DNA of 64,000 bases, taken from Bacteroidota bacterium (GTDB lineage Bacteria; Bacteroidota; Ignavibacteria; UBA10030; UBA6906). The stretch covers positions 15,072 to 79,071 of the forward strand of contig JBFLYO010000003.1 in the NCBI GenBank assembly GCA_040756745.1, in the 5' to 3' direction. This document shows, piece by piece, positions 13,814 through 60,925 of this stretch; positions within the stretch are counted from its first letter, which is position 1, and the number at the start of each line of letters is the position of its first letter. A program made the translations under genes and the position numbers. Below the pieces are notes generated by a model that worked only from the letters and a program-made list of their open reading frames with translations, had not been told where the DNA came from and did not search any database.

Positions 13814-15118
13814 ATGTTCGACGAACTGAGCCGGAAGCTTGACGCCGTCCTGAAAAAGCTGCGGGGACAAGGGAAGATCACGGAGGCCAACGTCGCTGAG
13901 ACGCTCCGTGAGGTCCGGCGCGTTCTCCTGGATGCCGACGTCAATTATAAGGTTGCGCGGGAGTTCATCGACGGCGTCCAGAAGAGAGCTATTGGCCAGG
14001 AGGTCTTACAGAGCATCACTCCCGGCCAGCTCGTCGTCAAGATCATTTTCGACGAGCTGGTGACACTGCTCGGGAGGTCGGCCGTGGAGATTGCCGTTTC
14101 GTCCACTCCCCCCACAGTGGTACTCGTTGCCGGCCTGCAGGGCTCGGGGAAGACGACGTTTTGTGCAAAGCTCGCGCGGCACTACGGGAGCCGCGGGCGA
14201 CATCCTCTCCTCGCCGCGGCGGACGTTCACCGTCCGGCAGCCATCCAGCAGCTTGCCTCGCTGGGAGCGCAGGCCGCCATCCCGGTCTTCTCCCTGCCGG
14301 GTGCGGGGGCGGTGGCGGTCGCAGGGGCGGCAGTCGAGCATGCGCGCAAGAACGCGCGGGATCTGGTGATCATCGATACCGCGGGCCGTCTGCACGTGGA
14401 TGAGGAGATGATGAGGGAGGTGGAAGCGGTCAGAGAGGCCGCACGCCCTCACGAGATTCTGTTTGTCGTTGACGCGATGACCGGACAGGATGCGGTCAAC
14501 ACCGCGCGAGTGTTCAACGAGCGACTCAACTTCGACGGCGCGGTGCTGACCAAGATGGACGGCGACGCGCGCGGGGGTGCAGCCCTCTCACTGCGGGCGA
14601 CCGTCGGGAAACCGATCAAGTTCCTGAGCATCGGCGAAAAGCTGGATGCGCTCGAGCGGTTTCACCCTGACCGGCTCGCATCCCGCATCCTCGGTATGGG
14701 CGACATCGTTACGCTCGTCGAGCAGGTGCAGGAGCGTGTCGACCAGGAGAAGGCGGTCCGACTCGAGGAGAAGCTCCGAAAGTCGCAGTTCACCCTCGAG
14801 GATTTCCTCGACCAGCTCCGGGAGGTCCGGAAGATGGGGCCGCTCAACCAGGTGCTGGGGATGCTTCCCGGCATGCACCGCCTCCCCTCGGACGCGCAGG
14901 TCGATGAAAAGGTGCTGGTGCGCATCGAAGCGATTATCCAGTCGATGACCCCCGAGGAGCGCCGCCGGCCCGCGATCATCAACGGGAGCAGGCGCAAGCG
15001 CATCGCGGGGGGAAGCGGGACAACGGTGCAGGATGTGAACAGGCTGATGAAACAGTACGAACAAATGCAACGGATGGTGAAACGGATGAGCGTAGGGGCG
15101 CGGTCCCCGCGCCCGTAG
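13814..15118 (+). CDS. ffh: signal recognition particle protein Ffh
   Basis: N and G domains (GLQGSGKTT, DTAGR) and a Met-rich M domain. Confidence 0.95.
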   Translation: MFDELSRKLDAVLKKLRGQGKITEANVAETLREVRRVLLDADVNYKVAREFIDGVQKRAIGQEVLQSITPGQLVVKIIFDELVTLLGRSAVEIAVSSTPPTVVLVAGLQGSGKTTFCAKLARHYGSRGRHPLLAAADVHRPAAIQQLASLGAQAAIPVFSLPGAGAVAVAGAAVEHARKNARDLVIIDTAGRLHVDEEMMREVEAVREAARPHEILFVVDAMTGQDAVNTARVFNERLNFDGAVLTKMDGDARGGAALSLRATVGKPIKFLSIGEKLDALERFHPDRLASRILGMGDIVTLVEQVQERVDQEKAVRLEEKLRKSQFTLEDFLDQLREVRKMGPLNQVLGMLPGMHRLPSDAQVDEKVLVRIEAIIQSMTPEERRRPAIINGSRRKRIAGGSGTTVQDVNRLMKQYEQMQRMVKRMSVGARSPRP

Positions 15119-25430: not shown

Positions 25431-25617
25431 CGTTGTAAACACAGGAAGGGCGCTGTGCTCTTAAATGAACGGTCGGTCGATAGGTGTCCAAAAATATGCA
25501 CATGGGAGAGCGCAACTCCTTCTCCCTCCTCTATTTTCAGGGCATTCTGATGGCACCCTTCTTGCAAACAAATTGGATACACCCACCGGACGGTCTCTCA
25601 ATGGAGGAGAGAACGAT

Positions 25618-26520: not shown

Positions 26521-27948
26521 ATGAAACGATCAGTTGTTGCAGTAGCACTCGTTGCCCTGCTGGGGGGTTCCGCGCAGGCGCAGTTCCCCGAAGACGCTCT
26601 CCGGTTTGCGACGCCCGGGCTGGGTGTCGGTGCGCGGGCGATCGGCATGGGCGGCGCGTACACCGGCGTTGCCTCCGACTACAGCGCCATCTTCTGGAAC
26701 CCGGCGGGTCTGGCACAGGCGACGTACGGCGAATTCTCCGCCGGGCTGTCCTATGCGGCGAACGACAACACGAGCTCCTTCTTCAACGCCCAGCAAGGAT
26801 TCTCCACCAACGCCACAAACCTCAACACACTGGGGATTGTGCATCCCCTGCCGGTCCGACGGGGGAGCGCGGTCCTCGCGTTCGGCTTCCATCGGCAGAG
26901 CTCGTTTGCGAATGGCGTCTCCTTCTCGGGATTTAACGGCAACAGCTCCATCATCCAGACGTTTGCGCCGGACGGCGGCTTCTATCCTTCCGATCTGTCC
27001 GGCAATGTCGCCTATCAACTCTATCTTGCGAACCTGGATACCACGACGGGCAGGTTCGACAGTCCCATCAGGGACCGTCTGACACAGATCGGCAAGGTCG
27101 TGGAAGGTGGAGGGCTGAACAACTGGTCGATCGCCGGCGCAGTGGACGTGGCGAAGAACTTCGCGGCCGGGATGACGCTGACCTATCTGGGAGGGAGCTA
27201 CCGGTACGACAGGAATTACCGGGAAGAGGATACCCGTGGTGTCTACCAGGCGTTCCCGTTCGATTTCTCCTCAATGACGCTGGACGATTTCATTGAGAGC
27301 GACATCGCGGGATGGAATGCGAAGTTCGGAATCATGTTCCGGGAAGAGAACCGCTTCCGTATTGGATTTGCGGTGAGAACTCCCACAGAGTTCACCATCC
27401 GGGAGAAATTCGGGACGACCGCGCGCAGCTACTTTGACAACGGCGATATGAGACCGGCTGATGCCCCGTTCAACACAGAGTTTTCGAGCGAATATGACGT
27501 TGTGACCCCCTGGGTACTCAGCGGAGGAGTCTCGGTGATCATCCGGGACCTCGTGCTCTCGGGCGACGTCGAATTCACCGACTGGACTACGCTGGAATTC
27601 CGCAAAGCGAATTCCGACGTGATGGCGCAGAACGCGGACATGAAGACGATCTTCCAGCCGGCGGTGAATTACCGGGCCGGCGCGGAATTCGACATCCACG
27701 ATATCGGGCTCAGGCTCCGTGGCGGATTCGTCTATAACAAGTCTCCCTTCCGCAGCGACCCCGTCTCCTTTGACCAGAAGTATATCACCGGAGGGCTGGG
27801 AATCCTTGTGGGAGAGTCGACGATGATCGACATTGCGTATGCGCGGGGCTGGTGGGAGACCTTCGTGTACAATTATAACGCGACGTCGCGCGTGAACGAA
27901 TCGATGAAGACAAACACATTCATGCTGACGCTGACGCACCGCTTCTGA
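26521..27948 (+). CDS. FadL/PorV-like outer membrane beta-barrel protein
   Basis: Signal peptide. The N-terminal conserved block GMGGAYTGVASDYSAIFWNPAGLA is typical of FadL/TodX/PorV-like barrels. The terminal residues …THRF end in Phe. Confidence 0.6.
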   Translation: MKRSVVAVALVALLGGSAQAQFPEDALRFATPGLGVGARAIGMGGAYTGVASDYSAIFWNPAGLAQATYGEFSAGLSYAANDNTSSFFNAQQGFSTNATNLNTLGIVHPLPVRRGSAVLAFGFHRQSSFANGVSFSGFNGNSSIIQTFAPDGGFYPSDLSGNVAYQLYLANLDTTTGRFDSPIRDRLTQIGKVVEGGGLNNWSIAGAVDVAKNFAAGMTLTYLGGSYRYDRNYREEDTRGVYQAFPFDFSSMTLDDFIESDIAGWNAKFGIMFREENRFRIGFAVRTPTEFTIREKFGTTARSYFDNGDMRPADAPFNTEFSSEYDVVTPWVLSGGVSVIIRDLVLSGDVEFTDWTTLEFRKANSDVMAQNADMKTIFQPAVNYRAGAEFDIHDIGLRLRGGFVYNKSPFRSDPVSFDQKYITGGLGILVGESTMIDIAYARGWWETFVYNYNATSRVNESMKTNTFMLTLTHRF

Positions 27949-48482: not shown

Positions 48483-49040
48483 TTATTTTCTCGTCCTGCT
48501 CTTCGACAGCTTGACATCGATCTCCTTCATGCGCTTCAGCTCCTGCTGTACCTGCTGCAGGTCGGCTTCAAGATCCTGCAGGCGCCGCATGTCGGTCATG
48601 ATGGTGCCGCTCTGCCTCTTGGCGAGAGTCGTCAGGCTGTCGACCGAAGCGGTCTTCCGGGCAAGACTCTCCTGCAGCGTCCTCACCCGGCGAAGGAGGG
48701 AGACGAACATCTGGAAATGCTCACGGTCCGCTTTCTTCATCGGGAGATTGAGACACGCCGTGAACCAGTAGAGGGCGAGACTGTCGTTTCGCGCCGGGTT
48801 GAACTCGCTCGCATAGAGCAGGGCAGCCTTCCGCGCGGCAACCGGGAAGGCCGTTGATTGCGGAAATTCTGTCGCCACCACGACATAATGCTCGGCCGCA
48901 CCCTTGAGCGCCATCTCCTGCTCAAGGCTGTCGGCGAGCCGCATGTGATAGTTGACCAGATTCGCCGTCCGGCTTCCTTCGGTCCCCCCGCAGCCGGCAA
49001 GAACGCTCACGAGCAGCACGCCTGCGATCCATCGGTTCAT
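48483..49040 (-). CDS. lipoprotein with coiled-coil C-terminus, function unknown
   Basis: Signal peptide with lipobox LAGC. The first gene... (see finding) it is the last gene of a minus-strand operon. Confidence 0.55.
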   Translation of the reverse strand: MNRWIAGVLLVSVLAGCGGTEGSRTANLVNYHMRLADSLEQEMALKGAAEHYVVVATEFPQSTAFPVAARKAALLYASEFNPARNDSLALYWFTACLNLPMKKADREHFQMFVSLLRRVRTLQESLARKTASVDSLTTLAKRQSGTIMTDMRRLQDLEADLQQVQQELKRMKEIDVKLSKSRTRK

Positions 49041-50485
49041 GATGCCTTCTTTCTCCCCGCGGCGCGGGCCGTGGGAAACTCTACCGTGAATGTCGACCCA
49101 ACCCCGGGCTTGCTCGAAGCGGACACCTTCCCCCCCTGTCCCTCTACGAGCGCCTTCACGAACGCAAGCCCGATCCCCGTTCCTTTTTTCCGCTCTTGCA
49201 CGGCGCTGGAAGCTCGATAAAATTTCGTAAAGACCTTGGGGAGCTCAGCTGCAGGAATCCCCGCCCCCGTGTCGCGTACCGTCAGGTGCACGCCGCGTGG
49301 CGACGGGCCGACGATCACCTCGACGGTTCCCCCTTCATCCGTGTACTTCAACGCGTTGTTGATCAAATTGGATGCGATCTGGCTGCACTTCTCCGCGTCC
49401 ACGACCACCTCGGGGGCCGGGAAAGGAAGGAAGCTGAGCGTAATCTGCTTCCGCGCTGCGAGGGCCTCCGCCTCGCTGACCGCCGGTCGTATGACCTTGG
49501 CAAGATCCGCGCTGACCAGGTTGTACTCCATCATCCCTGCCTCGACCTTTGAGAGATCGAGGAACTGATTGCTGAACTTCGCGATCTTGTCCACGCTCTC
49601 CATCATGTTGTCGAGCAGCTTCCGCTGCTGCTCGGTTACGGGCCCCGCCTTCTGCTCCGTCAGCAGATAATAGACCGAATGGATGGTCTGAAGCGGCATC
49701 CGGAGCTCGTGGGAGATGTGCTGCATCATTTCCGCACGGAAGCGGTTCAGCGCGTCAAGGCTCGCGCTCATGGAGTTGAAGGCCGCGGCGAGGTCGGCGG
49801 TCTCGTCCTTCGAATTGACCCGTATGCGCGTGAATGAGCCGCCGGCAATCTCCTTGGTCCCGGCAACCAGCGTCCGGAGCGGACGGGTAATGGTGCGCGC
49901 GATGATGAACGCCGTTGCGATGGCGGCAAGGAGAGTCGTGGCCGCGATGATCAAGGCGACGCGGAAGGAGCGCTGCGTCGCGGTGTCGATGTCGTCGACT
50001 GTGGCGCGCACAGTTCGTTGTTTGGTGGTGATAAGAGCGTCTAGCGAGCGGTGCATGGCGTCCACGGTGTCCGTCCGCGCCTTCTCGGTCCCCGCCGGGT
50101 TGTAGGGGTCGGCTTCGGAGACGGCCGTGAAGTGCCAGTCGTGCCGGCGCCCGATGCGCTCGATGAGCTGCCGGTCGCGTTCGTCGGGGAGCATTCCTGC
50201 CAGAGAGTCCAGGAAACGGTTGAAGATCCGGTTGTTGTCGGCGAAAATGACGTGGTACGTCGTGTCCTGCGAGATGAGGTACTTCTGCGCGTAACGCTCT
50301 TCCTCGTACAGAATCGTCCGCATCTGCTTGGCAAGATCGATCGCCTGGACGTCGACCGTAAGCACGCTGCGTGTAGTCTCGGAAATGTGGCTCAGCTCCA
50401 GGAGACCGAACGCGCTTGCAACAAACATCAGCAGGATGATGACCCCGAACCCGATCATCACCTTCCGGTAGATGGTGAGCTTCAC
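49037..50485 (-). CDS. sensor histidine kinase (TM sensor, HAMP, HisKA, HATPase_c)
   Basis: H-box ISHELRMPLQTI and G-boxes DTGAGIP and GTGIGLAFVK. Confidence 0.85.
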   Translation of the reverse strand: MKLTIYRKVMIGFGVIILLMFVASAFGLLELSHISETTRSVLTVDVQAIDLAKQMRTILYEEERYAQKYLISQDTTYHVIFADNNRIFNRFLDSLAGMLPDERDRQLIERIGRRHDWHFTAVSEADPYNPAGTEKARTDTVDAMHRSLDALITTKQRTVRATVDDIDTATQRSFRVALIIAATTLLAAIATAFIIARTITRPLRTLVAGTKEIAGGSFTRIRVNSKDETADLAAAFNSMSASLDALNRFRAEMMQHISHELRMPLQTIHSVYYLLTEQKAGPVTEQQRKLLDNMMESVDKIAKFSNQFLDLSKVEAGMMEYNLVSADLAKVIRPAVSEAEALAARKQITLSFLPFPAPEVVVDAEKCSQIASNLINNALKYTDEGGTVEVIVGPSPRGVHLTVRDTGAGIPAAELPKVFTKFYRASSAVQERKKGTGIGLAFVKALVEGQGGKVSASSKPGVGSTFTVEFPTARAAGRKKAS

Positions 50486-50859
50486 CGTCGTCCGTCCTCA
50501 ATGACAACCATGGCCACGACGTGGCTGTCGGAATGCGACATGGAGAGCATCACGGTGGCGCCTGCGAGGTGCGCGCGCAGTGAGCCGTGGAGCGTGATGC
50601 GCGGCTGGCCGGAGGGCTCGTTGGTAATCTCGACATCCTTCCATCGAAATTCCCCGGCCCAGCCGGTGGAGAGGGCCTTGCTGAGCGCTTCCTTGGCGGC
50701 AAACCGCGCCGCGTAATGCTGGTAGCGGTGCGCCTTCGCGTCGCAGTATGCGATCTCCGACGGGGTGTAGACCTTCTGGACAAAGTGGTCCCCGATCGTC
50801 TCCACGCTCTTCTTGATCCTGTCGATCTCAATGATATCCACACCGATGCCGCGCACCAT
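50482..50859 (-). CDS. acpS: holo-[acyl-carrier-protein] synthase (4'-phosphopantetheinyl transferase)
   Basis: AcpS motifs GIGVDIIEIDRI...FAAKEA. 125 aa. Confidence 0.85.
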   Translation of the reverse strand: MVRGIGVDIIEIDRIKKSVETIGDHFVQKVYTPSEIAYCDAKAHRYQHYAARFAAKEALSKALSTGWAGEFRWKDVEITNEPSGQPRITLHGSLRAHLAGATVMLSMSHSDSHVVAMVVIEDGRR

Positions 50860-50863
50860 GTCC

Positions 50864-51559
50864 TCAGGCCCCCTTCCCGCGGGCGTTGACCCGGTCGATG
50901 ACGTCGAGCAGCGCCGAAACGTCGGTCAGATCGTAATCGGCATGCGACTCTACAGTGCCGAACGTATCTCCGTACCGCGCAAATGCCGTGGTCATGCCCA
51001 GATTGGCTGCACCGACCACGTCACGCTCTGCCCAGTCACCTACCATGATTGCCTCGTGCGGGTGCACGTTCAACAGCTCGAGTGCGCGCCGGAAGGGGGC
51101 CGGGCTCGGCTTGCGTTCTCCCGTGTCTTCGAACACCACGACGTGGTCAAACAATTGATGGAAGTTCAGGTAACAGAGCCGCAGCCATGCCTCGCGGGCA
51201 GGCGCATCGGAGACGACAGCCAGCTTGATCCCCCGCTTCAACAGCGCCACCAGCGTCATGTTCACGTGCGGGTACGGCACGAGGGCGGCTTCGCGTGCCC
51301 GCCGGTAGGCAATCACCCCCGCCGAGAGAATCTTGTAATCGACCTTCTGGAAGACGTCGTAGATGAGCTGGTCGAACACGTTCTGGAACTCAATGCCGCG
51401 CTCCTGGTAGATGGCGTCGATGCGCGCGCGGGCCTCCTCGGTGGTCAATCCCAGACCGGCATCGATCATGGCATTGATCGCGGCCGAGACGGCGAGCCGC
51501 TTCATGCTCATGAAATCGACGAGCGTGTTGTCGAGATCGAAGATAACCGCTTTGACCAT
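50864..51559 (-). CDS. HAD superfamily hydrolase
   Basis: HAD motif I (FDLDNTLVD) and motif IV (VGDWAERD). Confidence 0.8.
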   Translation of the reverse strand: MVKAVIFDLDNTLVDFMSMKRLAVSAAINAMIDAGLGLTTEEARARIDAIYQERGIEFQNVFDQLIYDVFQKVDYKILSAGVIAYRRAREAALVPYPHVNMTLVALLKRGIKLAVVSDAPAREAWLRLCYLNFHQLFDHVVVFEDTGERKPSPAPFRRALELLNVHPHEAIMVGDWAERDVVGAANLGMTTAFARYGDTFGTVESHADYDLTDVSALLDVIDRVNARGKGA

Positions 51560-51574
51560 GGGGTTCCGGGCGGT

Positions 51575-51847
51575 TCAGCGCGGGGACCGTGCGGACCGGG
51601 CAACCTCATCTTCGATGAACCCCCGTACGGCGGGCTTCAGGTAGAGGTTGTCAAGGCCGATTTCGTTCAGCGCTGTGGCGAGAACGGCCGCCTTCCGCTG
51701 AGGCAGAAGTCTCCTGTTGATGAGCAGCAGTTTCTGTTCCTTGAGAATGCAATACCCCCCTTCAAAATCCCCCCGCTCATAGCGGATGGTGACGCCGAGC
51801 TGACGGGCGACGCCGCCCAGCTCCACGATGAGCTCTTCGTGCTTCAT
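51575..51847 (-). CDS. small hypothetical protein (90 aa)
   Basis: ORF with tight spacing in the minus-strand operon; its start overlaps the upstream stop. No family recognised. Confidence 0.4.
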   Translation of the reverse strand: MKHEELIVELGGVARQLGVTIRYERGDFEGGYCILKEQKLLLINRRLLPQRKAAVLATALNEIGLDNLYLKPAVRGFIEDEVARSARSPR

Positions 51848-52371
51848 GCCTTCGCTTGTGCAGGTCGGACAAAGGGGCGGAACACTGCAAGCGCGATGAT
51901 CGTGTAGTAGCAGAGCAGGGCGATCACCGGCGCGCCGGCGAGCGCGGCCAAACGGGCGATGAAGAGTTCGCGGAACACCTCATTCCCAGCGGTGGTAAAA
52001 AATTCCATGTACACCATCTCAGCGTCCAGATACATCGTGAACAGTTCCACAGGGACAAACGCATAGAACAGGATCGCGCTCATCATGAGCCAGCCGTTCT
52101 CCTTGAGGCGGAGGGGGGTCGTTACCAGGAACAGCGTCGCGCTGACGAGGACGACCGCATAGCTGATCATGATGATGACGGAGGCGAACGACATCAGACG
52201 GAAGATCTCCCGTTCTGCTTCAGGGGCGAGGTATTCCTCGAACTCGAGCGTCCCCGTCTTGAGCATGTCGTCCCCGATCATGGCACGGATGTTCACCCCC
52301 CCCAGCCACACGATAGCGCCGACGATCATGATGAAGAGGGCCGCCCGGGAGAGACGAGGGGACGGTGTCAT
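51844..52371 (-). CDS. hypothetical polytopic membrane protein
   Basis: Four to five hydrophobic helices. The start was chosen at MTPSPRLSRAALFIMIV (52371); the track ORF extends to 52422. Confidence 0.5.
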   Translation of the reverse strand: MTPSPRLSRAALFIMIVGAIVWLGGVNIRAMIGDDMLKTGTLEFEEYLAPEAEREIFRLMSFASVIIMISYAVVLVSATLFLVTTPLRLKENGWLMMSAILFYAFVPVELFTMYLDAEMVYMEFFTTAGNEVFRELFIARLAALAGAPVIALLCYYTIIALAVFRPFVRPAQAKA

Positions 52372-52802
52372 GTGCTCTCCGCGCGGGTCCTGCCGGCGTC
52401 GATCAGCCAGTTCTTGTACCACGCAAGGTCATGGCAAAGCGCCAGGAGACTCTCCACGCCCCCATGTGTCATGACGAGGTACGTCCGTTCGAAGCGCTCG
52501 CGCGCGTCAGCCGGAGCGTCCTTGAGCATTCCTGTGATCAGCGCCACAGCGTGATCGAGACTCCGGGCAAACTCGGATGCCAACCGGTCGTACCCTTCTC
52601 CGTTAGGGCCGATCCGGTTCATGATCCCGTACGCGCGGTGGAGGAACTTGGATTGAAAGCAAAGCTCCTCCAGCGTCTGCCGCCGCGCCGGGGCACGGCC
52701 GAGGTCCAACAGCATCCCCAGATCGTCACGCCTCCCGAGTGTGCCGCCTGACAAGACGTCCAACTCTGACAGCAACGATTCCGTAGCCGGGGAGAATTGC
52801 AT
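52368..52802 (-). CDS. hypothetical helical protein (first gene of the minus-strand acpS operon)
   Basis: 144-aa ORF. Its stop overlaps the start of the downstream membrane protein gene. Confidence 0.4.
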   Translation of the reverse strand: MQFSPATESLLSELDVLSGGTLGRRDDLGMLLDLGRAPARRQTLEELCFQSKFLHRAYGIMNRIGPNGEGYDRLASEFARSLDHAVALITGMLKDAPADARERFERTYLVMTHGGVESLLALCHDLAWYKNWLIDAGRTRAEST

Positions 52803-52967
52803 GATGTAATATAGAGAATAGGGGAAGGAGTTTCAAACACGCGGTGGAACTTCGCTGCGTACAAGCCGCTTTACAGTGCGGGGACGTCCCCTGACCCCGT
52901 TTTGATTCTGAGGACTCAAAACACTACTTTAGCCAGGCAGAACGGAACCAGTGGACAGGAGTCGGGC

Positions 52968-54527
52968 GTGCGCCTCACCAGGAAAATCCTCATTGCGATC
53001 GTCCCCGTCTTTCTCATCTTCATCACCGTCAGCGTCGTGCTCCAGAATCAGTTCCAGGAACGGGAAATGATGGAAGAGGCACAGGTTGCAGCACACACCT
53101 ACGCCGACATCGTCAAAGAATCGCTCGTCAGCATGATGCTGAAGAACTACGAGGTGGACAGCAGCTTCATCGACCGCGTGAATATGTTGAAGCAGATTGA
53201 TACGCTTCGCGTGTTCGTCAATAATCTGAGAATCCGTGATGAGCTGCTGACTCCGGAACGGTACCTGCGCCTGCAACTGAAGTATGCGACCCTTCGCCCG
53301 AAAGACATGATAGAGAAGCGGGTGCTGGAAGGCGGCGAGCCCTTCTTCGAGCGGGAAGGAGAGTACTTCAGGGGCGTGATTCCCTTCACGGCCACGTCGG
53401 TCTGCCAGAAATGCCACGCCGTCCCGGTCGGGTACGCGCTGGGTGCGGCGGACATCCGGATCTCGTTTGCGCGGGTGTCGGCGGCCACGGCTCAGAACTG
53501 GAGCCGGTCGCTGATCATCTTTGTGGTCTTCGCGGCTGTCGTGATCGGCGTCGCGGTGATGATGTTCCGGATCTTCGTTTCCAAGCCCGTGCGCGGCCTG
53601 GTCGGCGCTACGTTTCAGATCAGCCGGGGGAACCTCGACACCCCGGTACCGGGGGCGGAGGTGCTTCGTCCCGGCGAAGACGAGCTTGCCGTGCTGTCCC
53701 TCCGATTCGATGAAATGAGAATCTCCCTCAAGGAAAAGATCGACCAGCTTGACCACGCCAACCGGTCGCTCTCCGACCGAAATACCGAGCTCGAAAGAGC
53801 TCTGGACCGCCTCCGCAAGGCGCAGGAGGATCTCGTCCGCAGCGAGCGTCTTGCCGTGACAGGGAAGCTGACCGCACAACTTTCACACGAGATCAACAAT
53901 CCGATCCACAATATCCAGAGTCTCCTGGAGTCCGCCCTGCGCAAGGTGAACGGCAACGTCGCCCTCCGGGAACTCATCGGCGTCGCTCTTGAAGAAGTGT
54001 CCCGGATGGCAAAGCTGACCCGCCAGATGCTCGATTTCTACCGGGGGTCAGTGGTCGAACACGAGCAGGATGAAGTGGATCTCCGGAGTCTTCTTGTGGA
54101 AACCGCGCGCAGCTACACGCCCCAGCTCGAACAGGCGGGGATCACGGTGGTCCTCGAAGCGAACGAGCCGGTTCCCCCCGTGCGTGGGTCGCGCGACAAG
54201 CTGAAGCAGGTGCTGATCAATCTCGTGATCAATGCGCGCGACGCCATGGACTCTGGCGGGATGCTGGCCCTGCGCTGCCGGGCAAACCGTGGGAGCGTCT
54301 GCGTCGAGGTTGCGGACACCGGCGTGGGGATTCCGGAAGAGAACATGGGGCGGATCTTCGAGGCGTTTTTCACCACCAAGAAGGAAGTGAGTGGCGTGGG
54401 TCTGGGACTAGCCGTCAGCTATGGCATCGTCCAGGCGCACCAGGGCACCATCGCCGTCCGCAGCACAATCGGGAAAGGGACGACGTTCATTATCGAACTC
54501 CCGGCATCGGCCGACGTCCATGTCTGA
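52968..54527 (+). CDS. sensor histidine kinase with periplasmic CxxCH heme-binding PAS-like (Tll0287/DUF3365-like) sensor domain
   Basis: TM helix, then a sensor region carrying VCQKCHAVPVGYALGAADI (CxxCH), a second TM, HAMP, H-box LSHEINNPIHNI and G-boxes DTGVGIPEEN and GVGLGLAVSYG. The start was chosen at the GTG at 52968 (RBS AGGAG). The track begins at the TTG at 52902. Confidence 0.8.
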   Translation: MRLTRKILIAIVPVFLIFITVSVVLQNQFQEREMMEEAQVAAHTYADIVKESLVSMMLKNYEVDSSFIDRVNMLKQIDTLRVFVNNLRIRDELLTPERYLRLQLKYATLRPKDMIEKRVLEGGEPFFEREGEYFRGVIPFTATSVCQKCHAVPVGYALGAADIRISFARVSAATAQNWSRSLIIFVVFAAVVIGVAVMMFRIFVSKPVRGLVGATFQISRGNLDTPVPGAEVLRPGEDELAVLSLRFDEMRISLKEKIDQLDHANRSLSDRNTELERALDRLRKAQEDLVRSERLAVTGKLTAQLSHEINNPIHNIQSLLESALRKVNGNVALRELIGVALEEVSRMAKLTRQMLDFYRGSVVEHEQDEVDLRSLLVETARSYTPQLEQAGITVVLEANEPVPPVRGSRDKLKQVLINLVINARDAMDSGGMLALRCRANRGSVCVEVADTGVGIPEENMGRIFEAFFTTKKEVSGVGLGLAVSYGIVQAHQGTIAVRSTIGKGTTFIIELPASADVHV

Positions 54528-55920
54528 TCAGGCATCCATCCTCGTGGTCGACGACGACAAGGCCTTCCGCGTCGCCACCAAAACTCTGCTGGAAGATGAA
54601 GGATTTGTCGTAGCGACTGCTGCAAGCGGCGACGAAGCGCTGACGAAGATGGAGACAGAGCAGTTCGATCTGGTGCTCTCTGATATGGTAATGGGAAAGA
54701 TGAGCGGCGTGGAACTGCTTGCCAACGTCAAAGCGAAGCGCCCCGACCTCCCCGTCATCATGGTCACCGGCTTCGGCTCCATTCAGACGGCGGTGGAGGC
54801 GATGCGGCTTGGTGCGTCGGATTACCTGACGAAACCATCCAACAACGACGAGCTGCTCATCAAGATCCGCCGCGCCCTGGAGATGCAGGACAAGGAGCGT
54901 CAGCTCCGCTCGCTTCGTGAGGAGCTGCAGGGGACCTACAGCTTCGGCAACATGGTGAGCCGCAGCCCGGTAATGCAGGAAGTGATACGTCAGGTGCAGC
55001 AGGTGGCCGACACCGACGTGACGATCCTCATCCAGGGGGAAAGCGGGACAGGCAAGGAGCTCGTCGCGCGCGCGCTCCACTTTAACAGCAAACGCTCCCT
55101 GAAACCGTTCGTCGTCGTCAACTGCTCGGCGATCCCCGAAAATCTGCTGGAGAGCGAACTCTTTGGGTATGAGCGCGGCGCCTTCACGGGAGCGACCCGC
55201 CAGCGGGCAGGAAAGTTCGAAGAAGCGAACAACGGTACACTCTTCCTGGATGAGATCGGGGACATCTCACCCGCCGTTCAGACCAAGCTGCTCCGGGCCC
55301 TTCAGGATAAAACCTTTGAGCGGGTCGGCGGAACGGGATCCATCAGCGTGAACACCCGCGTCGTTGCTGCAACCAACCGGAACCTTGATGTGATGGTCCG
55401 TCAGGGGGACTTCCGCGAGGATCTGTTCTATCGCCTCAATGTCTTCCCGATTGTACTTCCTCCGCTGCGCGAACGACTTGAAGACATCCCGCTCCTGACG
55501 GAACATTTCCTGCACCGCCATGCGGACCTGGCAGGAGGGACGGTGAAGTCAGTGGCCACCGCCGTGATCAGCGACATGATGAACTATACGTGGCGGGGGA
55601 ACATCCGCGAACTGGAGAATCTGATCAAACGCGCCATCATCAAGACCCCCGGCGAGGTGATCACGTCGCTCGAACTTCCCAACGTCGAGCCCGCCGCGCC
55701 GTCATCCGGGGAGCCCGCCGAGGGCGTCAACCTGAACACTCCGTATAAAGACTACATCGGCAGCATCATCCGCCATGCCGAGGAGCGGTACCTGGTCCGC
55801 ATGCTCCGCCTCTGCAAGGGGAACATCAACCAGGTGGCGAAGCTGATGGACGTAGACCGGAAGACCATTTATCGCAAGATGTCCGACTATTCGATCGATC
55901 CGGCCTCGTTCCGCGAATGA
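54520..55920 (+). CDS. sigma-54-dependent response regulator (NtrC family: REC, AAA+ with GAFTGA, Fis-type HTH)
   Basis: Receiver (ILVVDDD...DLVLSDMVM), Walker A GESGTGKE, GAFTGA, ESELFGYERGAFTGA and a C-terminal HTH. The ATG at 54520 overlaps the kinase stop by 8 nt. Confidence 0.9.
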   Translation: MSDQASILVVDDDKAFRVATKTLLEDEGFVVATAASGDEALTKMETEQFDLVLSDMVMGKMSGVELLANVKAKRPDLPVIMVTGFGSIQTAVEAMRLGASDYLTKPSNNDELLIKIRRALEMQDKERQLRSLREELQGTYSFGNMVSRSPVMQEVIRQVQQVADTDVTILIQGESGTGKELVARALHFNSKRSLKPFVVVNCSAIPENLLESELFGYERGAFTGATRQRAGKFEEANNGTLFLDEIGDISPAVQTKLLRALQDKTFERVGGTGSISVNTRVVAATNRNLDVMVRQGDFREDLFYRLNVFPIVLPPLRERLEDIPLLTEHFLHRHADLAGGTVKSVATAVISDMMNYTWRGNIRELENLIKRAIIKTPGEVITSLELPNVEPAAPSSGEPAEGVNLNTPYKDYIGSIIRHAEERYLVRMLRLCKGNINQVAKLMDVDRKTIYRKMSDYSIDPASFRE

Positions 55921-56061
55921 TCCCGCGTGTGGCATCACCGCCACACTACCGCTCGCCAGCGAGTTCCCTCCTGTGGTTTTGCTGCCCCACTCCCCGGTCG
56001 ACCTCGGTTGAATCGCCGCAAAAACCCCCCTCCCCGACTTCACCGATTGGTTTTCCTCCCT

Positions 56062-56077
56062 TGGCACAGTGGTTGAC
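56062..56077 (+). promoter_or_regulatory. candidate sigma-54 (-24/-12) promoter element TGGCACAGTGGTTGAC upstream of the ECF sigma gene
   Basis: TGGCAC-N5-TTGA compared with the consensus TGGCAC-N5-TTGCW. The GG to -12 spacing is correct but the -12 dinucleotide is GA rather than GC. It lies 53 nt upstream of the ATG at 56130 and directly downstream of the sigma-54 activator gene. Confidence 0.4.
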
Positions 56078-56129
56078 CCTGTTGATCCTACCAAACGACC
56101 ACGACGGCATACATACAGGGGGAACGGCC

Positions 56130-56690
56130 ATGATGACGACACGGTTCGAGCGGGAAGCCCTGACGCAGCTACCGGCGCTCCGTCACTACGCAGAGTCGCT
56201 GACGAAGGACCGGCAGCGATCTGACGACCTGGTGCAGGAAACGATGTTGAAAGCCCTCCGCTATTTCGACACGTACAGGGAGGGGACGAACTGCAGGGCG
56301 TGGCTGTTCCAGATATGCAAACACTCGTTCATCAACGAGTACCGTCGAAAGGAATACGAGCCGATCCTCGTCGATTTCCAGTCGGAGGCCGGCGGCGGAG
56401 ATGATGCGGGGGAATGGCATGGCGTGCACCCTTCGCTCAACGATGCCTCCGCGCAGCAGGATGACGGCGCGATGCTTGGAGACGAGGTGACCTCGGCGCT
56501 GCGAGGTCTCCCCCACGACTACCAGACCGTGCTGCTCCTGAACGACATCGAGGGATACACGTACGACGAGATTGCGGCGTTCATGCAGGTGCCCGTCGGC
56601 ACGATTCGCTCCCGTATCCACCGTGCCCGCAAGATGCTCGCGGCGAGGCTGGAGCGCTATGCTGAAGAGCTGGGATACAGACAGAACTAG
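56130..56690 (+). CDS. RNA polymerase sigma factor, ECF (sigma-70 group 4) family
   Basis: Region 2 (LVQETMLKALRYFDTYREGTNCRAWLFQICKHSFINEYRR) and region 4 (LLLNDIEGYTYDEIAAFMQVPVGTIRSRIHRAR). The start was chosen at MMTTRFE with RBS GGGGGAA. The track ORF extends upstream with no domain content. Confidence 0.85.
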   Translation: MMTTRFEREALTQLPALRHYAESLTKDRQRSDDLVQETMLKALRYFDTYREGTNCRAWLFQICKHSFINEYRRKEYEPILVDFQSEAGGGDDAGEWHGVHPSLNDASAQQDDGAMLGDEVTSALRGLPHDYQTVLLLNDIEGYTYDEIAAFMQVPVGTIRSRIHRARKMLAARLERYAEELGYRQN

Positions 56691-56691
56691 G

Positions 56692-56782
56692 GTGAAGCAC
56701 ATTCAATTCGGATTGCGGATTGCGAAGTGCGGAATATTCCGCAATCCACACTCCGCAATCCGCAATGCTGAGATTGCTTCAC
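56692..56782. repeat. Family 2 palindromic element between the ECF sigma stop and the cyc2-like gene start
   Basis: Outer arms GTGAAGCA...TGCTTCAC. Inner imperfect palindrome CGGATTGCGGATTGCGAAGTGCGGAATATTCCGCAATCCACACTCCGCAATCCG. Confidence 0.75.
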
Positions 56783-56850
56783 ACCGATGGCCTGAGTATA
56801 TTGCCCCGTTTCCTGTTCTTTTCCCGCAGACAGCTCACAAGGAGCGCATC

Positions 56851-57948
56851 ATGATGATCCGCCGGCCGATTATGCTCGTCCTTCTTGCGGCATCTGTGGC
56901 GTTCACCGCAGAAGCGCTGCCCCGGTTCTCCTCCCGCACCGGTTTCAAGTGTCAGTCCTGCCACGTCAACCCGTCAGGCGGGGCAATGCGCCTTGCCAAC
57001 GGGGTCCAGTACGGCAGGGAACAGCTTCCCGTTCCCGAGTGGTCAAAGGAGTTCGAAGTCGAAGACTTCTCCAACGTCATCACGAACATCCTGGGAGTGG
57101 GAGCGGACGTTCGGACCCTTTTTTTCTATCAGCGCCTGACCGACACAACGACGCTGAACGGTTTCTGGCAGATGCAGGGAGACATCTACCTGAATTTTCG
57201 AATCGCGAGAAAGATCAGCTTCTTCCTCAAGAAGGGACTGCGGGACGGGTTTGAAGCGTACGGACTCTTCTCCGTCCTCCCAGCGACGGGATACGTGAAG
57301 GTGGGGAAATTCCTCCCGAACTACGGACTCAGAATCGACGACCATACGACATACATCCGGCAGGTTACCGGCATGAGCCCTGAACGCGGCCGCGTGGAAC
57401 GGACCGGGTTGGAACTCGCCATATCCCCGGGTCCGCTCACGTTCAGCGGAGGGATGTACAATGCGGAAGAGGGGAACTTCCCAACGTCGTCAAGCAAGAA
57501 GGCCATTCTGGGACGCGCTGAAGGACTGTTCAACCTGGGCGAAGAGCTCTTCCTTGGGCTGGGAGGCAATGTGTTCATCAGGGAAGTGCAGGGAGTGAGG
57601 TCGACGTACTATGGCGGATTCGGCTCGTTCAGCGTGGGGCGGCTTACGGTATTTGGTGAAGCTGACCTGGTGAGGAACAAGACCCCTGGTGGGACGACGG
57701 TGAAGGAGCTGGTAACGTATGTGGAGGGGGACATGATGATCACCCAGGGGCTCGATCTGAAGCTCGCATTCGATTTCCACGATCTCGACCTGGATCTCAA
57801 GTCGGGAACAAAATCGCGTTACAGCGTCGGGTTTGAATTCTTCCCCGTGGGCGGCGTGGAGGTCCGACCGGTGTACCGGATTGTCAGGGAGAACCCGAGC
57901 GTGGGCAACAGGGACGAGTTTCATCTGCTTCTGCACTTGTATCTCTGA
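56851..57948 (+). CDS. outer-membrane beta-barrel protein with N-terminal CxxCH heme motif. Candidate Cyc2-like fused monoheme cytochrome-porin
   Basis: Strong RBS AAGGAG and a signal peptide MMIRRPIMLVLLAASVAFTAEA. CQSCH (KCQSCHVNPSGG) lies within 15 residues of the predicted mature N-terminus. It is followed by about 330 residues of alternating Gly/aromatic beta-strand-like sequence. The ORF track start at 56572 overlaps the sigma gene and was rejected. Confidence 0.5.
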   Translation: MMIRRPIMLVLLAASVAFTAEALPRFSSRTGFKCQSCHVNPSGGAMRLANGVQYGREQLPVPEWSKEFEVEDFSNVITNILGVGADVRTLFFYQRLTDTTTLNGFWQMQGDIYLNFRIARKISFFLKKGLRDGFEAYGLFSVLPATGYVKVGKFLPNYGLRIDDHTTYIRQVTGMSPERGRVERTGLELAISPGPLTFSGGMYNAEEGNFPTSSSKKAILGRAEGLFNLGEELFLGLGGNVFIREVQGVRSTYYGGFGSFSVGRLTVFGEADLVRNKTPGGTTVKELVTYVEGDMMITQGLDLKLAFDFHDLDLDLKSGTKSRYSVGFEFFPVGGVEVRPVYRIVRENPSVGNRDEFHLLLHLYL

Positions 57949-57954
57949 ACGAAC

Positions 57955-58407
57955 ATGGAGAAGCGCGTGTCTCTGCGTCTGGCGATCTCGATAATTCTTG
58001 TCGCGGCGCCGGTGTGCTCATTCGCTCAGAGCAAGAGTCGGGGTTTGATGAATCAAACCCCGACTCTGACGAAACCCGGAAAGACGATTTCGTTCAGGCA
58101 GGATGTGTTTCCGATCATCAGCAAGAACTGCCTTCCGTGCCACGCAGAGGACAACTTCAATCCGAGCGAGCTATCCCTTGATTCCTATGAGCTCTTGATG
58201 GAAGGAGGGAAGCATGGCCCGCCTGTTGTCGCGGGGAACGCGAAGGAGAGTCTCATCGTGAGGAAGACCGGGCTCAATCCGCCGTTTGGGGACCGGATGC
58301 CATTGAACTCCAAGCAGAAGATCGAATCGGGAAATGCCAAATGGCTCACGGAGGCGGAACTGAAGATCATCGCAGAATGGGTGGAGCAAGGGGCGAAGGA
58401 TAATTAG
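57955..58407 (+). CDS. small secreted monoheme c-type cytochrome with PSCyt1-like (planctomycete cytochrome c) heme-binding domain
   Basis: Signal peptide (…CSFAQS). DVFPIISKNCLPCHAED...LMEGGKHGPPVVAGNAKESLIVRK matches the PSCyt1 pattern around its CxxCH. Confidence 0.65.
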   Translation: MEKRVSLRLAISIILVAAPVCSFAQSKSRGLMNQTPTLTKPGKTISFRQDVFPIISKNCLPCHAEDNFNPSELSLDSYELLMEGGKHGPPVVAGNAKESLIVRKTGLNPPFGDRMPLNSKQKIESGNAKWLTEAELKIIAEWVEQGAKDN

Positions 58408-58417
58408 AAATGAGAGA

Positions 58418-58506
58418 TTCAGTCGGGGCTGAATATATTCAGCCCCGACTGAATCAGAAGTTGTCAATTGTCATTGCGGGGCCGGTGTGGGAGCACACCG
58501 GCCCCC
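58418..58506. terminator. two consecutive perfect hairpins after the cytochrome c gene (probable bidirectional terminator)
   Basis: The first is GATTCAGTCGGGGCTGAATAT/ATATTCAGCCCCGACTGAATC, a 19-bp perfect palindrome. The second is GGGGCCGGTGTG-GGAG-CACACCGGCCCC, followed by a T-rich tract. Confidence 0.6.
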
Positions 58507-58585: not shown

Positions 58586-60925
58586 ATGCTTGAAGAGAAA
58601 CCCGGCATCAATCCGGGCCGGTTCTTCCGAAAGGAATGGATCGCTCCCGGCGTTCTTGTGAAGGTCGGCATTGGTCTGTCACTGACCACAGTGCTTGTGC
58701 TTCTGTTTCCACGCGGCGAGTCTATTGAGCTTGAATATCGCGTGGGAGCAGTCTGGGCGCAAAAAGACCTGATCGCTCCCTTTTCCTTCCCCATATTCCG
58801 TGACGAGCGTGAATATGCGCGTGATGTCGAAGAGGCCAGGAAGCGGGTGTTCAACGTCTTTGAGCGGGACACAGCCGGGAGCGAGATGCAGGTCGCGCAA
58901 CTCGACAGCTTCTTCGCGCGGCTCGAGGAGACGCTCGCGGCGCGGGCGCACCAGCGCAGGAACATGCGCAAAGGGGGGGGATCCGCATCAGAAGATTCCT
59001 CAAGGTTCAGCCGGCTTGCCTCCGCCCTTGACATTCCCTTCTCCGACAAGGAGTGGGATGCCCTCTCCTCGCTTGTCTCCTCGGGCCGTCTCCGTCAGAT
59101 GGGGCGGGTGCTGAGCAATCTTGCCCGTAGGTATCTTCACGTCGGGATCATCGACAGGCCGAAGAATGCACTCGGACGGCCCGACATCGCAATCCGCAAG
59201 GGTACGGTCGAGGAAATTCTTCCCGCGGCGCGCCTGCTCGACAACAACGACCTTCACGCGCTCCTGGAGAAGGAGCTCTCGGAGAGGTTCCCCGGCGACC
59301 ATGAGGCTGTCGGGATGGCCTACAAGATCGGCGTGATGCACATCAAGCCAAACGTGAAATTCAGTGCGGCGGCAACGGACCAGGCCCTTGCCGCAGCCGC
59401 CGACGCCGTGCCCCGGACTCTCGGCTTCGTTCAGGAGAACGAGCGGATCGTCAGCAAGCATGAGCGCATTACACAGGAAACCAGGCTGAAGCTGGAATCG
59501 CTGCGCCGTGCCCGCGCCGAACGGGGACCGGAGTCGGACCGACCGACACAATTCCTCGGGACGATCCTCCATGTGTCGATCGTGTTGGTCCTGTACGGCC
59601 TCTATTTGTTCCTCTTCCGGAAGGGGATCTTTGGCAGCAATCGGAAACTGGCACTCATCGCCGTCATTTTCGTGATGGAAGGAGCGTTTGCGTACCTGAC
59701 CCGCGAAGCCGACGTGAACGCCCCGCTTGAATTCCTCATCCTCGTGCCGGTGGCGTCGATGCTCCTCACCATCATCTTCGACTCCCGCGTTGGCTTTTAC
59801 GGCACAGTGATCATCTCGTACCTCGTGGCGGGGATCCGCGGGAACGACTATTCGGTCGCCCTCGCGTCGCTTGTTGCAGGTGCGATGGCGGTCTACACGG
59901 TCCGGGACATGAAAAACCGGACGCAGATCTTCCGGTCACTCGGCTTCATCTTCCTCGGGTATGGGATATCCATCACGGCGCTGGGGCTGGAGCGGTTCGA
60001 GTCCACGCCTATCGTCGTGGAACAACTGGCGTACGGACTGCTGAATGCGGTGATCTCCCCCGTGATGACCTACGGACTGCTGATCTTCCTGGAGAAGAGC
60101 TTCCGCGTGACGACCGACCTCGCCCTCATGGAGCTGGCGCATTTCAACCATCCGCTGCTCCGCCAGCTCTCAGAGCAGGCGCCTGGCACGTATCATCACA
60201 GCATGACGATGGCGACGCTTGCAGAAGCCGCCGCGGCGGCCGTGGGTGCGAACGAGGTGCTCGCCCGCGTGGGGGCCTATTTCCATGATGTCGGCAAGAT
60301 CGTGAAGCCGACCTATTTCGTGGAGAACCAGAAGACCTCCCGCAGCAGGCATGACAAGCTGTCGCCGCGCATGAGCTCCCTCATCATCGGCGCGCACGTC
60401 AAGGACGGGATTGCGCTGGCGCAAGAGCACCACCTTCCCGAGGAAGTGATCGAGTTCATCCCGATGCACCACGGCACCACACGGATGGACTACTTCTACA
60501 ACAAAGCGCTCGAACTGGCGCGGAACGATCCGGATGAAACCAAGATCGATGAGATCAAGGAGCAGGACTACCGCTACCCGGGCCCCAAGCCGCAGACAAA
60601 GGAGACGGGTATCATGATGCTGGCCGACGCGGTGGAGGCAGCGGTGCGGACGATCGACGACCCCACGCCCCAGCGCCTCGAGCAAGCAATCGACGAGCTC
60701 ATCAAGCTCCGGTTTGAAGAAGGGGAACTGGACGAATGTCCCCTGACGCTGAAGGACCTGACGCGCATTAAATCGGCCTTCCTTGGCGTCCTCGTCGGGA
60801 TTTACCACTCGCGGGTCAAATATCCCGACACGGCGCGCAGAAAGACACGCAAGACCACCACGCCGCCCGCCGAGCCCGCGGCGGAACGGAACACGAACAT
60901 CATCAGGGAGATCGATCGGCAATGA
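58586..60925 (+). CDS. PgpH-like 7TM receptor with intracellular HD phosphohydrolase domain (7TMR-HDED + HD/HDIG)
   Basis: Extracytoplasmic N-domain, 7 TM helices, then HD domain motifs (HSMTMATLAEAAA...GAYFHDVGK...HH). Confidence 0.8.
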   Translation: MLEEKPGINPGRFFRKEWIAPGVLVKVGIGLSLTTVLVLLFPRGESIELEYRVGAVWAQKDLIAPFSFPIFRDEREYARDVEEARKRVFNVFERDTAGSEMQVAQLDSFFARLEETLAARAHQRRNMRKGGGSASEDSSRFSRLASALDIPFSDKEWDALSSLVSSGRLRQMGRVLSNLARRYLHVGIIDRPKNALGRPDIAIRKGTVEEILPAARLLDNNDLHALLEKELSERFPGDHEAVGMAYKIGVMHIKPNVKFSAAATDQALAAAADAVPRTLGFVQENERIVSKHERITQETRLKLESLRRARAERGPESDRPTQFLGTILHVSIVLVLYGLYLFLFRKGIFGSNRKLALIAVIFVMEGAFAYLTREADVNAPLEFLILVPVASMLLTIIFDSRVGFYGTVIISYLVAGIRGNDYSVALASLVAGAMAVYTVRDMKNRTQIFRSLGFIFLGYGISITALGLERFESTPIVVEQLAYGLLNAVISPVMTYGLLIFLEKSFRVTTDLALMELAHFNHPLLRQLSEQAPGTYHHSMTMATLAEAAAAAVGANEVLARVGAYFHDVGKIVKPTYFVENQKTSRSRHDKLSPRMSSLIIGAHVKDGIALAQEHHLPEEVIEFIPMHHGTTRMDYFYNKALELARNDPDETKIDEIKEQDYRYPGPKPQTKETGIMMLADAVEAAVRTIDDPTPQRLEQAIDELIKLRFEEGELDECPLTLKDLTRIKSAFLGVLVGIYHSRVKYPDTARRKTRKTTTPPAEPAAERNTNIIREIDRQ

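Follow-up and report, generated by a model that had tools for sequence, protein, structure and literature searches.

A sensor histidine kinase of an uncultured Bacteroidota bacterium is probably a periplasmic heme-c sensor of redox state or of a ligand, and would control an outer-membrane electron-transfer module through a sigma54-dependent activator and an extracytoplasmic function (ECF) sigma factor. The kinase gene lies in a stretch of 64,000 nucleotides (64 kb, called the window below), positions 15,072 to 79,071 of the forward strand of contig JBFLYO010000003.1 in GenBank assembly GCA_040756745.1. It is followed by the genes for the activator, the ECF sigma factor, a Cyc2-like fused cytochrome-porin and a small c-type cytochrome (Table 1). 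More tentatively, we propose a narrower version, in which a clade-specific heme-c Cache kinase of uncultured Bacteroidota and Ignavibacteriota responds to how reduced or oxidised the outer electron-transfer chain is and passes this on, by way of the sigma54 activator and in this genome an ECF relay, to a short Cyc2-type cytochrome-porin, not annotated before, and its periplasmic cytochrome partner.

Sensors of this kind are already known from structures since 2008 (two Geobacter crystal structures), from Tll0287, from two Pfam families and from a 2026 survey, and the domain assignment itself is not surprising. What is new is a clade that current models miss. The clade escapes both PF11845 and PF21563 and may therefore be overlooked by surveys built on these models; its members are annotated only as 'HAMP domain-containing protein' or 'ATP-binding protein'. 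The output of the clade can be read from the DNA: a conserved predicted enhancer with a -24/-12 element heads genes for ECF sigma factors, c-type cytochromes and Cyc2-like proteins. The element thus offers a testable link from a periplasmic heme sensor to outer-membrane electron transfer and a natural reporter promoter for the sensor's signal, and the system is a useful, ready-made one for asking what heme-c Cache sensors detect.

The sensor domain of the kinase

The initial annotation had placed a CxxCH motif in an extracytoplasmic sensor between two transmembrane helices. Both the motif and the topology were confirmed. The motif is CQKCH (residues 146-150), contained in the peptide FTATSVCQKCHAVPVGYALG (residues 140-159), and the sensor domain, about 150 residues long, is flanked by two hydrophobic helices (residues 6-26 and 180-203), with the basic N-terminus inside and a HAMP domain after the second helix. 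The location matters because c-type heme attachment requires a site outside the cytoplasm. From the Cys and His frequencies of the open reading frames (ORFs) of the window, 0.00075 CxxCH motifs are expected by chance in the kinase and 0.027 in all 52 ORFs. Three were observed, all of them inside 52968-58407.

Direct searches with the sensor gave no family. At an expectation value (E) of up to 10, a Pfam scan returned no match to PF11845 or PF21563, and its FixH match on the second transmembrane helix was spurious. A phmmer search against the PDB found nothing, and a profile of 10 close homologues retrieved just a chance match to GET3 (E 1.1). The close homologues themselves, found by a word-indexed search of 5.8 billion proteins, are nine in number, 46-77% identical and mainly fragments; VCQ[KR]CHA is kept in every intact one. 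When the close-homologue profile was run exhaustively against 1.84 billion cluster representatives (E up to 1e-3), 207 relatives were found. Among the 156 that were fetched, most of the proteins long enough to reach the site have one CxxCH, at about residue 140-200. Relatives longer than 300 residues without CxxCH have CX3CH or a longer CXnCH at the same place, apart from P0042, which does not have the region.

Conservation was then read from two alignments, one of 91 full-length relatives and one of 35 sequences covering the sensor only and headed by the window kinase. C149 and H150 are invariant across the 91 relatives, and M57, P139, C146, G155 and G159 are each conserved in at least 90% of them; C146 is invariant in the 35-sequence alignment. 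Besides 24 histidine kinases, the 91 relatives include 48 methyl-accepting chemotaxis proteins (MCPs) and 8 GGDEF proteins. Seventeen of the 91 match PF21563 (Mcp40H-20_sensor) and eight match PF11845 (Tll0287-like) at E up to 0.01. Searched against the PDB, the 35-sequence profile recovered the full domains of 3B42 (GSU0935, E 1.4e-9) and 3B47 (GSU0582, E 4.2e-7). A comparison by hhalign gave 97.5% probability (E 7e-12, 116 columns), and 86.5% with the close-family profile alone. Both profile alignments pair M57, C146, C149 and H150 with Met60, Cys140, Cys143 and His144 of GSU0935. The match to c-type-heme PAS-like (Tll0287-like) domains claimed in the initial annotation therefore stands at the level of profiles, although it does not appear in direct Pfam or PDB searches, and the conservation of the Cys and His residues among homologues leaves the heme reading unrefuted.

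The AlphaFold model of the kinase (mean predicted local distance difference test score, pLDDT, 72.6) has a long N-terminal helix, two more helices and a sheet of four strands, not five. C149 and H150 lie in a three-residue helical turn within an 18-residue loop between the last two strands, 133-139 and 158-166, where pLDDT is about 60-71. Fold searches returned the GSU0935 and GSU0582 domains together with Cache and PAS-like sensors. The sensor fold is Cache/PAS-like with a long N-terminal helix.

These results place the kinase among characterised sensors. In GSU0935, heme is bound via Cys140 and Cys143, with His144 as the proximal ligand and Met60 as the distal ligand of the low-spin form (PMC8396549). 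Deshpande et al. (2026) united the GSU proteins and Tll0287 in one family, which they reclassified from PAS-like to Cache ('sCache_heme') and in which CXXCH sits in an insertion, which has a short helix, between beta3 and beta4 (PMC12889525). The kinase resembles GSU0935 and GSU0582 (3B42 and 3B47; PF21563) in having a periplasmic domain between two transmembrane helices followed by HAMP, a long N-terminal helix before a PAS/Cache-like sheet, a single CXXCH towards the C-terminus of the domain, a His (here predicted) as the proximal ligand and a Met on the N-terminal helix. With Tll0287/DUF3365 (PF11845, sCache_heme) it shares the Cache fold and probably the placing of CXXCH in an insertion before the last strands, and like the sCache_heme family its relatives are histidine kinases, MCPs and GGDEF proteins. 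On the other hand, the kinase is only about 20% identical to the GSU proteins, is not recognised by their Pfam model and is longer by about 20 residues between its first strand and its helices. It signals as a histidine kinase with a sigma54 activator as its partner and not as an MCP, and its clade belongs to uncultured Bacteroidota and Ignavibacteriota, whereas the GSU domains are those of Geobacter sulfurreducens chemoreceptors. Overall, homology supports the sensor as a predicted diverged member of the sCache_heme family, of the Met-ligated Geobacter type.

We considered whether CxxCH could instead bind a metal, work as a thiol-disulfide switch or have arisen by chance in a Cache domain that binds a ligand. 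The kinase itself has no Pfam heme-domain match, and some distant relatives have CX3CH or CX5-8CH spacings. However, longer CXnCH spacings are known heme-c sites too, for example CX4CH in cytochromes c3. Moreover, the two Cys, the His and the Met each align with their counterpart in a heme-c site defined by crystallography, and the conservation is near-absolute for a motif whose chance expectation in the kinase is so small. A non-heme role is therefore very unlikely, and judging from homology the outward-facing sensor of the kinase almost certainly carries a covalently bound heme.

Two variations were seen among the relatives. In the distant relatives P0062, P0067, P0103, P0107, P0109, P0128, P0130, P0137, P0139 and P0140, the CXXCH spacing is altered to CX3CH (CVSSCH) or longer (e.g. 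CSETSGCH and CAGKGGQSGCH) at the same position, and several of them have a long acidic coiled insertion. These motifs may be non-canonical heme attachment sites. Separately, a kinase sub-branch (P0023, P0025, P0029, P0031-P0034, P0038 and P0044) has an insertion of about 30 residues before CXXCH, with two more conserved Cys and one His (e.g. ...HCELGKH...SACE...), which may be a second cofactor or disulfide site.

The output of the kinase and its conservation

The initial annotation held that the kinase is translationally coupled to an NtrC-type regulator, and this is borne out by the overlap ATGTCTGA of the kinase stop with the regulator start. The regulator (identical to NCBI MEW6509729.1) consists of REC, Sigma54_activat and HTH_8 domains, with GAFTGA read from the translation. 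The best NCBIfam similarities of the kinase-regulator pair are to AtoS/AtoC, ZraS/ZraR and NtrC, all of them under the equivalog cut-offs.

To find where the regulator might act, nine orthologous intergenic regions between the regulator and ECF genes were aligned. Against a mean identity of 48%, three conserved islands appeared: the inverted repeat TGTGGC-N6-GCCACA, a looser second copy of it, and TGGCA(C/T)-N5-TTGA, in which TGGCA and TTGA are invariant in the nine loci. The repeats and the -24/-12 element occur together in 16 loci, once in each, compared with 0-1 in 20 shuffles of the 516 kb searched. The -24/-12 element ends in TTGA and lies upstream of an ECF gene or at the head of an operon. 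Save for GA at -12, the repeats and TGGCAC-N5-TTGA form the classic layout of an enhancer-dependent promoter, and the promoter is predicted to depend on sigma54. Because the conserved predicted enhancer and -24/-12 element stand directly upstream of the ECF sigma gene (56133-56690), we take this gene as the direct target in the window. By comparison, the canonical sigma54 consensus TGGYAY-N5-TTGCW has four matches in the window (3.5 expected), none at this locus. A relaxed consensus (N4-6, TTGC or TGGC at -12) has no match in the 400 nt 5' of the cytochrome-porin gene in the window or in 14 related loci.

The comparative set came from a scan of 185,579 species genomes, which yielded 26 loci, all from metagenome-assembled genomes (MAGs) labelled Bacteroidota, Ignavibacteriota or Chlorobi. 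The sigma54 regulator follows the kinase in every locus of sufficient length, with the exception of L008 and L016. Of about 23 informative loci, 14 carry a cytochrome-porin gene no more than 10 kb 3' of the kinase gene, and 12 of these 14 have a small PSCyt1 gene downstream of it. As for the two without a clear PSCyt1 gene, L019 ends before it and L023 has just a weak upstream match. In L020, L023 and L029 the cytochrome-porin gene adjoins the regulator gene, and the upstream genes seen in the window are absent.

In L015 the ECF gene is 7 kb away from the regulator gene, yet the element (repeats with -24/-12) is directly upstream of the ECF gene. In L001, L003, L024, L026 and L027 the element is just 3' of the regulator gene, ahead of the genes leading to the cytochrome-porin; those after it in L001 (13020-18194) encode CHRD-domain and cytochrome proteins. 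In L029 (6239-14592) the element heads a single operon that runs from a lipoprotein, CHRD repeats with a type IX secretion system (T9SS) tail, PSCyt1 and PF14376 Haem_bd to the kinase, the regulator, the cytochrome-porin and a second PSCyt1. L020 (2760-2900) has the same layout, and its element has one mismatch, CGGCAT at -24. Autoregulation is implied in L029, and apparently in L020, because the kinase and regulator genes are inside the operon that the element heads. Most loci without a nearby cytochrome-porin gene also have no element; L009, L010 and L015 have it before an ECF sigma gene. Seven porin-less loci (L008, L009, L010, L014, L017, L021 and L025) were examined for other CxxCH proteins and none was found, and no element was found in six of these seven or in L016 and L022. 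A 222-aa protein 3' of the regulator in L001 was tried as an ECF homologue and rejected, as it has no similarity. Taken together, comparative genomics supports the assignment of the output, namely a sigma54 activator with an enhancer and promoter heading ECF sigma and cytochrome genes.

The protein at the end of this proposed relay is 364 or 365 aa long, depending on the choice of start codon, and has an N-terminal hydrophobic leader and a single CQSCH at residues 33-37. Its AlphaFold (AF2) model has 16 strands (predicted template-modelling score 0.72), with OprP (2O4V, E 1.3e-10) and OprO (4RJW) as the top Foldseek matches. The iron oxidase Cyc2 likewise has OprP and OprO as structural templates, and is defined by the motif AXPXFAR[Q/K][T/Y] upstream of CXXCH and by PXL downstream (Keffer et al. 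2021, PMC8406198). The two proteins are alike in their signal peptide, single N-terminal CXXCH, 16-strand porin, OprP/OprO matches and A-x-P-x-F...T motif. The stretch before CXXCH is ALPRFSSRT in the window protein and ALPRFASRT in the family consensus; of the Cyc2 motif it retains A, P, F and T, but has another residue in place of the Arg, and Arg at the [Q/K] position. Compared with Cyc2, the window protein is shorter and its motif inexact, and the downstream Pro is at another distance (+3 after the heme-site His), the PXL motif being lost with no Leu kept. The family has 617 homologues (E up to 0.001), and among the 120 listed each one with a name is called 'hypothetical protein'. We call the cytochrome-porin Cyc2-like in architecture and regard it as a candidate member of the Cyc2 family. 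The length cut-off of the Cyc2 screen in FeGenie is 365 aa (PMC8406198), and iron-cycling surveys may overlook the cytochrome-porin family because its length falls at this value. The small PSCyt1 cytochrome (57955-58407) is likely the periplasmic electron partner of the cytochrome-porin.

The signal and its alternatives

From these parts a mechanism can be proposed. C146 and C149 would receive their heme in the periplasm from the cytochrome c maturation machinery, H150 serving as the proximal ligand and M57, in the long N-terminal helix, as an exchangeable distal one. By analogy with GSU0935 and GSU0582, a change in the redox state of the heme, or a small ligand that takes the place of Met57, would alter coordination and spin state. 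The N-terminal helix may then shift relative to the sheet and act through the second transmembrane helix and HAMP on the kinase core (His307). The phosphorylated sigma54 activator is predicted to bind the two TGTGGC-N6-GCCACA repeats (55928-55989) and to open the -24/-12-type promoter (56062-56076), which would drive the ECF sigma gene in this genome; the ECF sigma factor, we infer, then drives the adjacent Cyc2-like cytochrome-porin and small cytochrome c genes. Elsewhere, the element directly heads operons with these cytochromes, which at times include the kinase and regulator genes. The least certain step is the signal. Because of the gene content of the predicted regulon, we favour the redox state or electron flux of the periplasmic and outer-membrane electron-transfer chain, so that the Cyc2-like module would be made when electrons can pass between the cell and the outside.

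A serious, if somewhat unlikely, rival keeps the same heme-c sensor and output and makes the signal a diatomic gas, foremost nitric oxide (NO) or else carbon monoxide (CO), that displaces Met57. NO binds to GSU0582 and GSU0935 in the oxidised as well as the reduced state and CO in the reduced state, in place of Met60 (PMC8396549), and M57 is conserved in the kinase family. A P. azotoformans sCache_heme protein is, like the kinase, a membrane-anchored heme-c Cache sensor with a cytoplasmic signalling module; it forms no stable O2 complex and releases NO slowly, as known NO sensors do, and has been proposed to sense NO (PMC12889525). By contrast with the window kinase, which keeps the Met of the Geobacter redox-linked type, this characterised NO binder is reported to have no distal axial protein ligand (PMC12889525). 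The predicted regulon also argues against a gas: the element heads genes for cytochromes, the cytochrome-porin, CHRD proteins and ECF sigma factors, and no recognisable NO-detoxification or denitrification genes occur among the operons and ORFs inspected.

An unlikely variant of the redox reading has the sensor heme take electrons straight from Fe(II) or from the Cyc2-like/PSCyt1 chain, which would make the kinase a specific sensor of iron(II) or of electron flux that switches on its own oxidase. The kinase-regulator pair is linked to the Cyc2-like protein, the kinase is encoded within a cytochrome operon in some loci, and redox-sensing RegB/RegA controls the cyc2-containing rus operon of A. 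ferrooxidans (PMC5506826). Nevertheless, nothing in the sequence is specific to iron, and the Cyc2-like protein, with an N-terminal motif that departs from the Cyc2 consensus, is a putative iron oxidase only. Besides, this variant overlaps with the redox explanation and differs from it in specificity alone.

In PubMed Central open-access and bioRxiv full text, RegB/RegA was the only regulation of cyc2 that we found. Within the same literature we found neither a circuit from sigma54 through an ECF sigma factor to a Cyc2-like protein nor any regulatory circuit for a Cyc2-like protein outside acidophiles. RegB is not known to contain a heme-c Cache sensor, nor RegA to act as a sigma54 activator, and no ECF sigma step is known in their control. 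The likeness of RegB/RegA of Acidithiobacillus ferrooxidans to the window system is that of a redox-responsive two-component system governing outer-membrane Cyc2 and its partners (PMC5506826). If true, the proposed circuit would also point to these lineages of soil and groundwater as candidate iron oxidisers or candidates for extracellular electron transfer.

Several points weigh against the proposed redox circuit. The confidence of the kinase model is moderate throughout (pLDDT 72.6) and around the motif (about 60-71), and its template-modelling scores (TM-scores) to 3B42 and 3B47 are low, 0.23-0.41. As the kinase itself matches neither Pfam model, its link to the family runs via profiles through intermediate sequences, and heme on this clade is a prediction from homology. 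The -12 element is TTGA (GA), where the canonical one is TTGC (GC). The evidence for the step from the ECF sigma factor to the cytochrome-porin consists of adjacency and a promoter-like motif. About nine informative loci have the kinase-regulator pair with no cytochrome-porin gene or element nearby. Neither rpoN nor cytochrome c maturation genes were seen in the part of the window that was scanned; the 20 larger ORFs scanned for rpoN are housekeeping or unrelated. Finally, only one signalling-coupled member of the wider family has been studied biochemically, and the results point to NO (PMC12889525).

Gene start, promoters and neighbouring sequence

The features of the locus are collected in Table 1. 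The kinase is the same protein as NCBI MEW6509728.1 (Bacteroidota MAG), whose annotation is only 'ATP-binding protein'. Its GTG start is preceded by AGGAG 8 nt 5'. An alternative TTG start at 52902 is disfavoured because the conserved promoter-like element (52901-52932) sits downstream of that TTG. In most loci that share the genes upstream of the kinase, the pattern TTTGATTC...TAC(C/T)TT is at the same position. The Bacteroidetes -33/-7 promoter consensus is TTTG / TAnnTTTG, and we take the likeness of TTTG-N20-TACTTTAG to this type as that of an ordinary vegetative promoter.

Table 1. Coordinates of the kinase locus in the window and the evidence for each feature
Feature	Position	Strand	Evidence and remarks
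Promoter-like element of the kinase operon	52901-52932	+	TTTG (52901-52904), 20-nt spacer, TACTTTAG (52925-52932)
Sensor histidine kinase, 519 aa	52968-54527	+	ORF with GTG start and TGA stop; HAMP, HisKA, HATPase_c
Transmembrane helix 1 (residues 6-26)	52983-53045	+	Hydrophobic KILIAIVPVFLIFITVSVVLQ after basic N-terminus MRLTRK; helical in model
Periplasmic sensor domain (residues 27-179), Cache/PAS-like, predicted heme-c type	53046-53504	+	
Met57 codon, predicted distal heme ligand	53136-53138	+	Conserved in at least 90% of 91 relatives; pairs with GSU0935 Met60
CQKCH (C146, C149, H150; residues 146-150), predicted c-type heme attachment motif with proximal His	53403-53417	+	Conservation; alignment with GSU0935
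Transmembrane helix 2 (residues 180-203)	53505-53576	+	Hydrophobic stretch; continuous helix in model
HAMP domain	53577-53732	+	PF00672, E 2.9e-4, under the Pfam cut-off here; present in 72 of 91 relatives
Kinase core, HisKA (H-box SHEINNP, His307 at 53886-53888) and HATPase_c	53865-54506	+	PF00512, PF02518
Sigma54-dependent response regulator, 466 aa	54520-55920	+	REC, AAA+ with GAFTGA, lid, Fis-type helix-turn-helix (HTH_8)
Inverted repeat TGTGGCATCACCGCCACA, predicted regulator binding site 1	55928-55945	+	Sole exact TGTGGC-N6-GCCACA in 64 kb; invariant in 9-locus alignment
Imperfect inverted repeat TGTGGTTTTGCTGCCCCA, predicted regulator binding site 2	55972-55989	+	Centre 44 bp from site 1
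Sigma54-type -24/-12 element TGGCACAGTGGTTGA	56062-56076	+	Sole pattern match in window; TTGA replaces TTGC at -12
ECF-type sigma factor, predicted direct regulator target	56133-56690	+	Sigma70_r2, Sigma70_r4_2; element upstream
Promoter-like TTGCTT-N17-TATATT upstream of cytochrome-porin gene	56774-56802	+	Similar by eye in L004, L005, L007, L011, L019
Cyc2-like fused cytochrome-porin	56851-57948	+	Signal peptide, CQSCH (56950-56964), 16-strand barrel
Small periplasmic c-type cytochrome, 150 aa	57955-58407	+	PSCyt1 (PF07635), CLPCH
Perfect 18-bp-stem hairpin (GATTCAGTCGGGGCTGAATA/TATTCAGCCCCGACTGAATC) closing the cluster	58416-58455		Directly after small cytochrome gene

The initial annotation had also pointed to a perfect 12-bp palindrome in the promoter region of the kinase. 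The palindrome, GGGGACGTCCCC, is indeed present at 52880-52891, but a special role for it was not upheld. Perfect 12-bp palindromes number 23 in the window, compared with 20.0 +/- 3.6 in shuffles, and GGGGACGTCCCC is absent from the closest relative, L004 (kinase 81% identical), and from 27 other loci examined. Because it is at chance frequency and unconserved, we rejected it as an operator.

The sequence TTGCTT-N17-TATATT upstream of the cytochrome-porin gene is possibly a target of the ECF sigma factor. Between the ECF sigma and cytochrome-porin genes there is also a repeat array (56710-56768), made of two copies of GGATTGCG followed by three of the inverted CGCAATCC and surrounding a 14-bp palindrome, GCGGAATATTCCGC (56729-56742). 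It is absent from L004 and might serve as a terminator or an operator, or be a small mobile repeat. The hairpin at the end of the cluster probably acts as a terminator in both directions, between the cluster and a 7TM-HD receptor gene at 58586.

On the other side of the kinase, a block of genes on the reverse strand (49037-52802) is kept in most related loci. It encodes a second histidine kinase (4HB_MCP-HAMP), ACPS, a HAD hydrolase and proteins of 90, 192 and 144 aa, the last three with no Pfam match. The heme-sensor kinase occurs without this block in L001, L003, L020, L023, L024 and L029. Far upstream, a perfect canonical sigma54 consensus, TGGCACCCTTCTTGCA, is found at 25551-25566 on the forward strand, upstream of a gene for a FadL/TodX-like outer-membrane protein (26521-27948), and sits inside or just before an unannotated 338-aa ORF.

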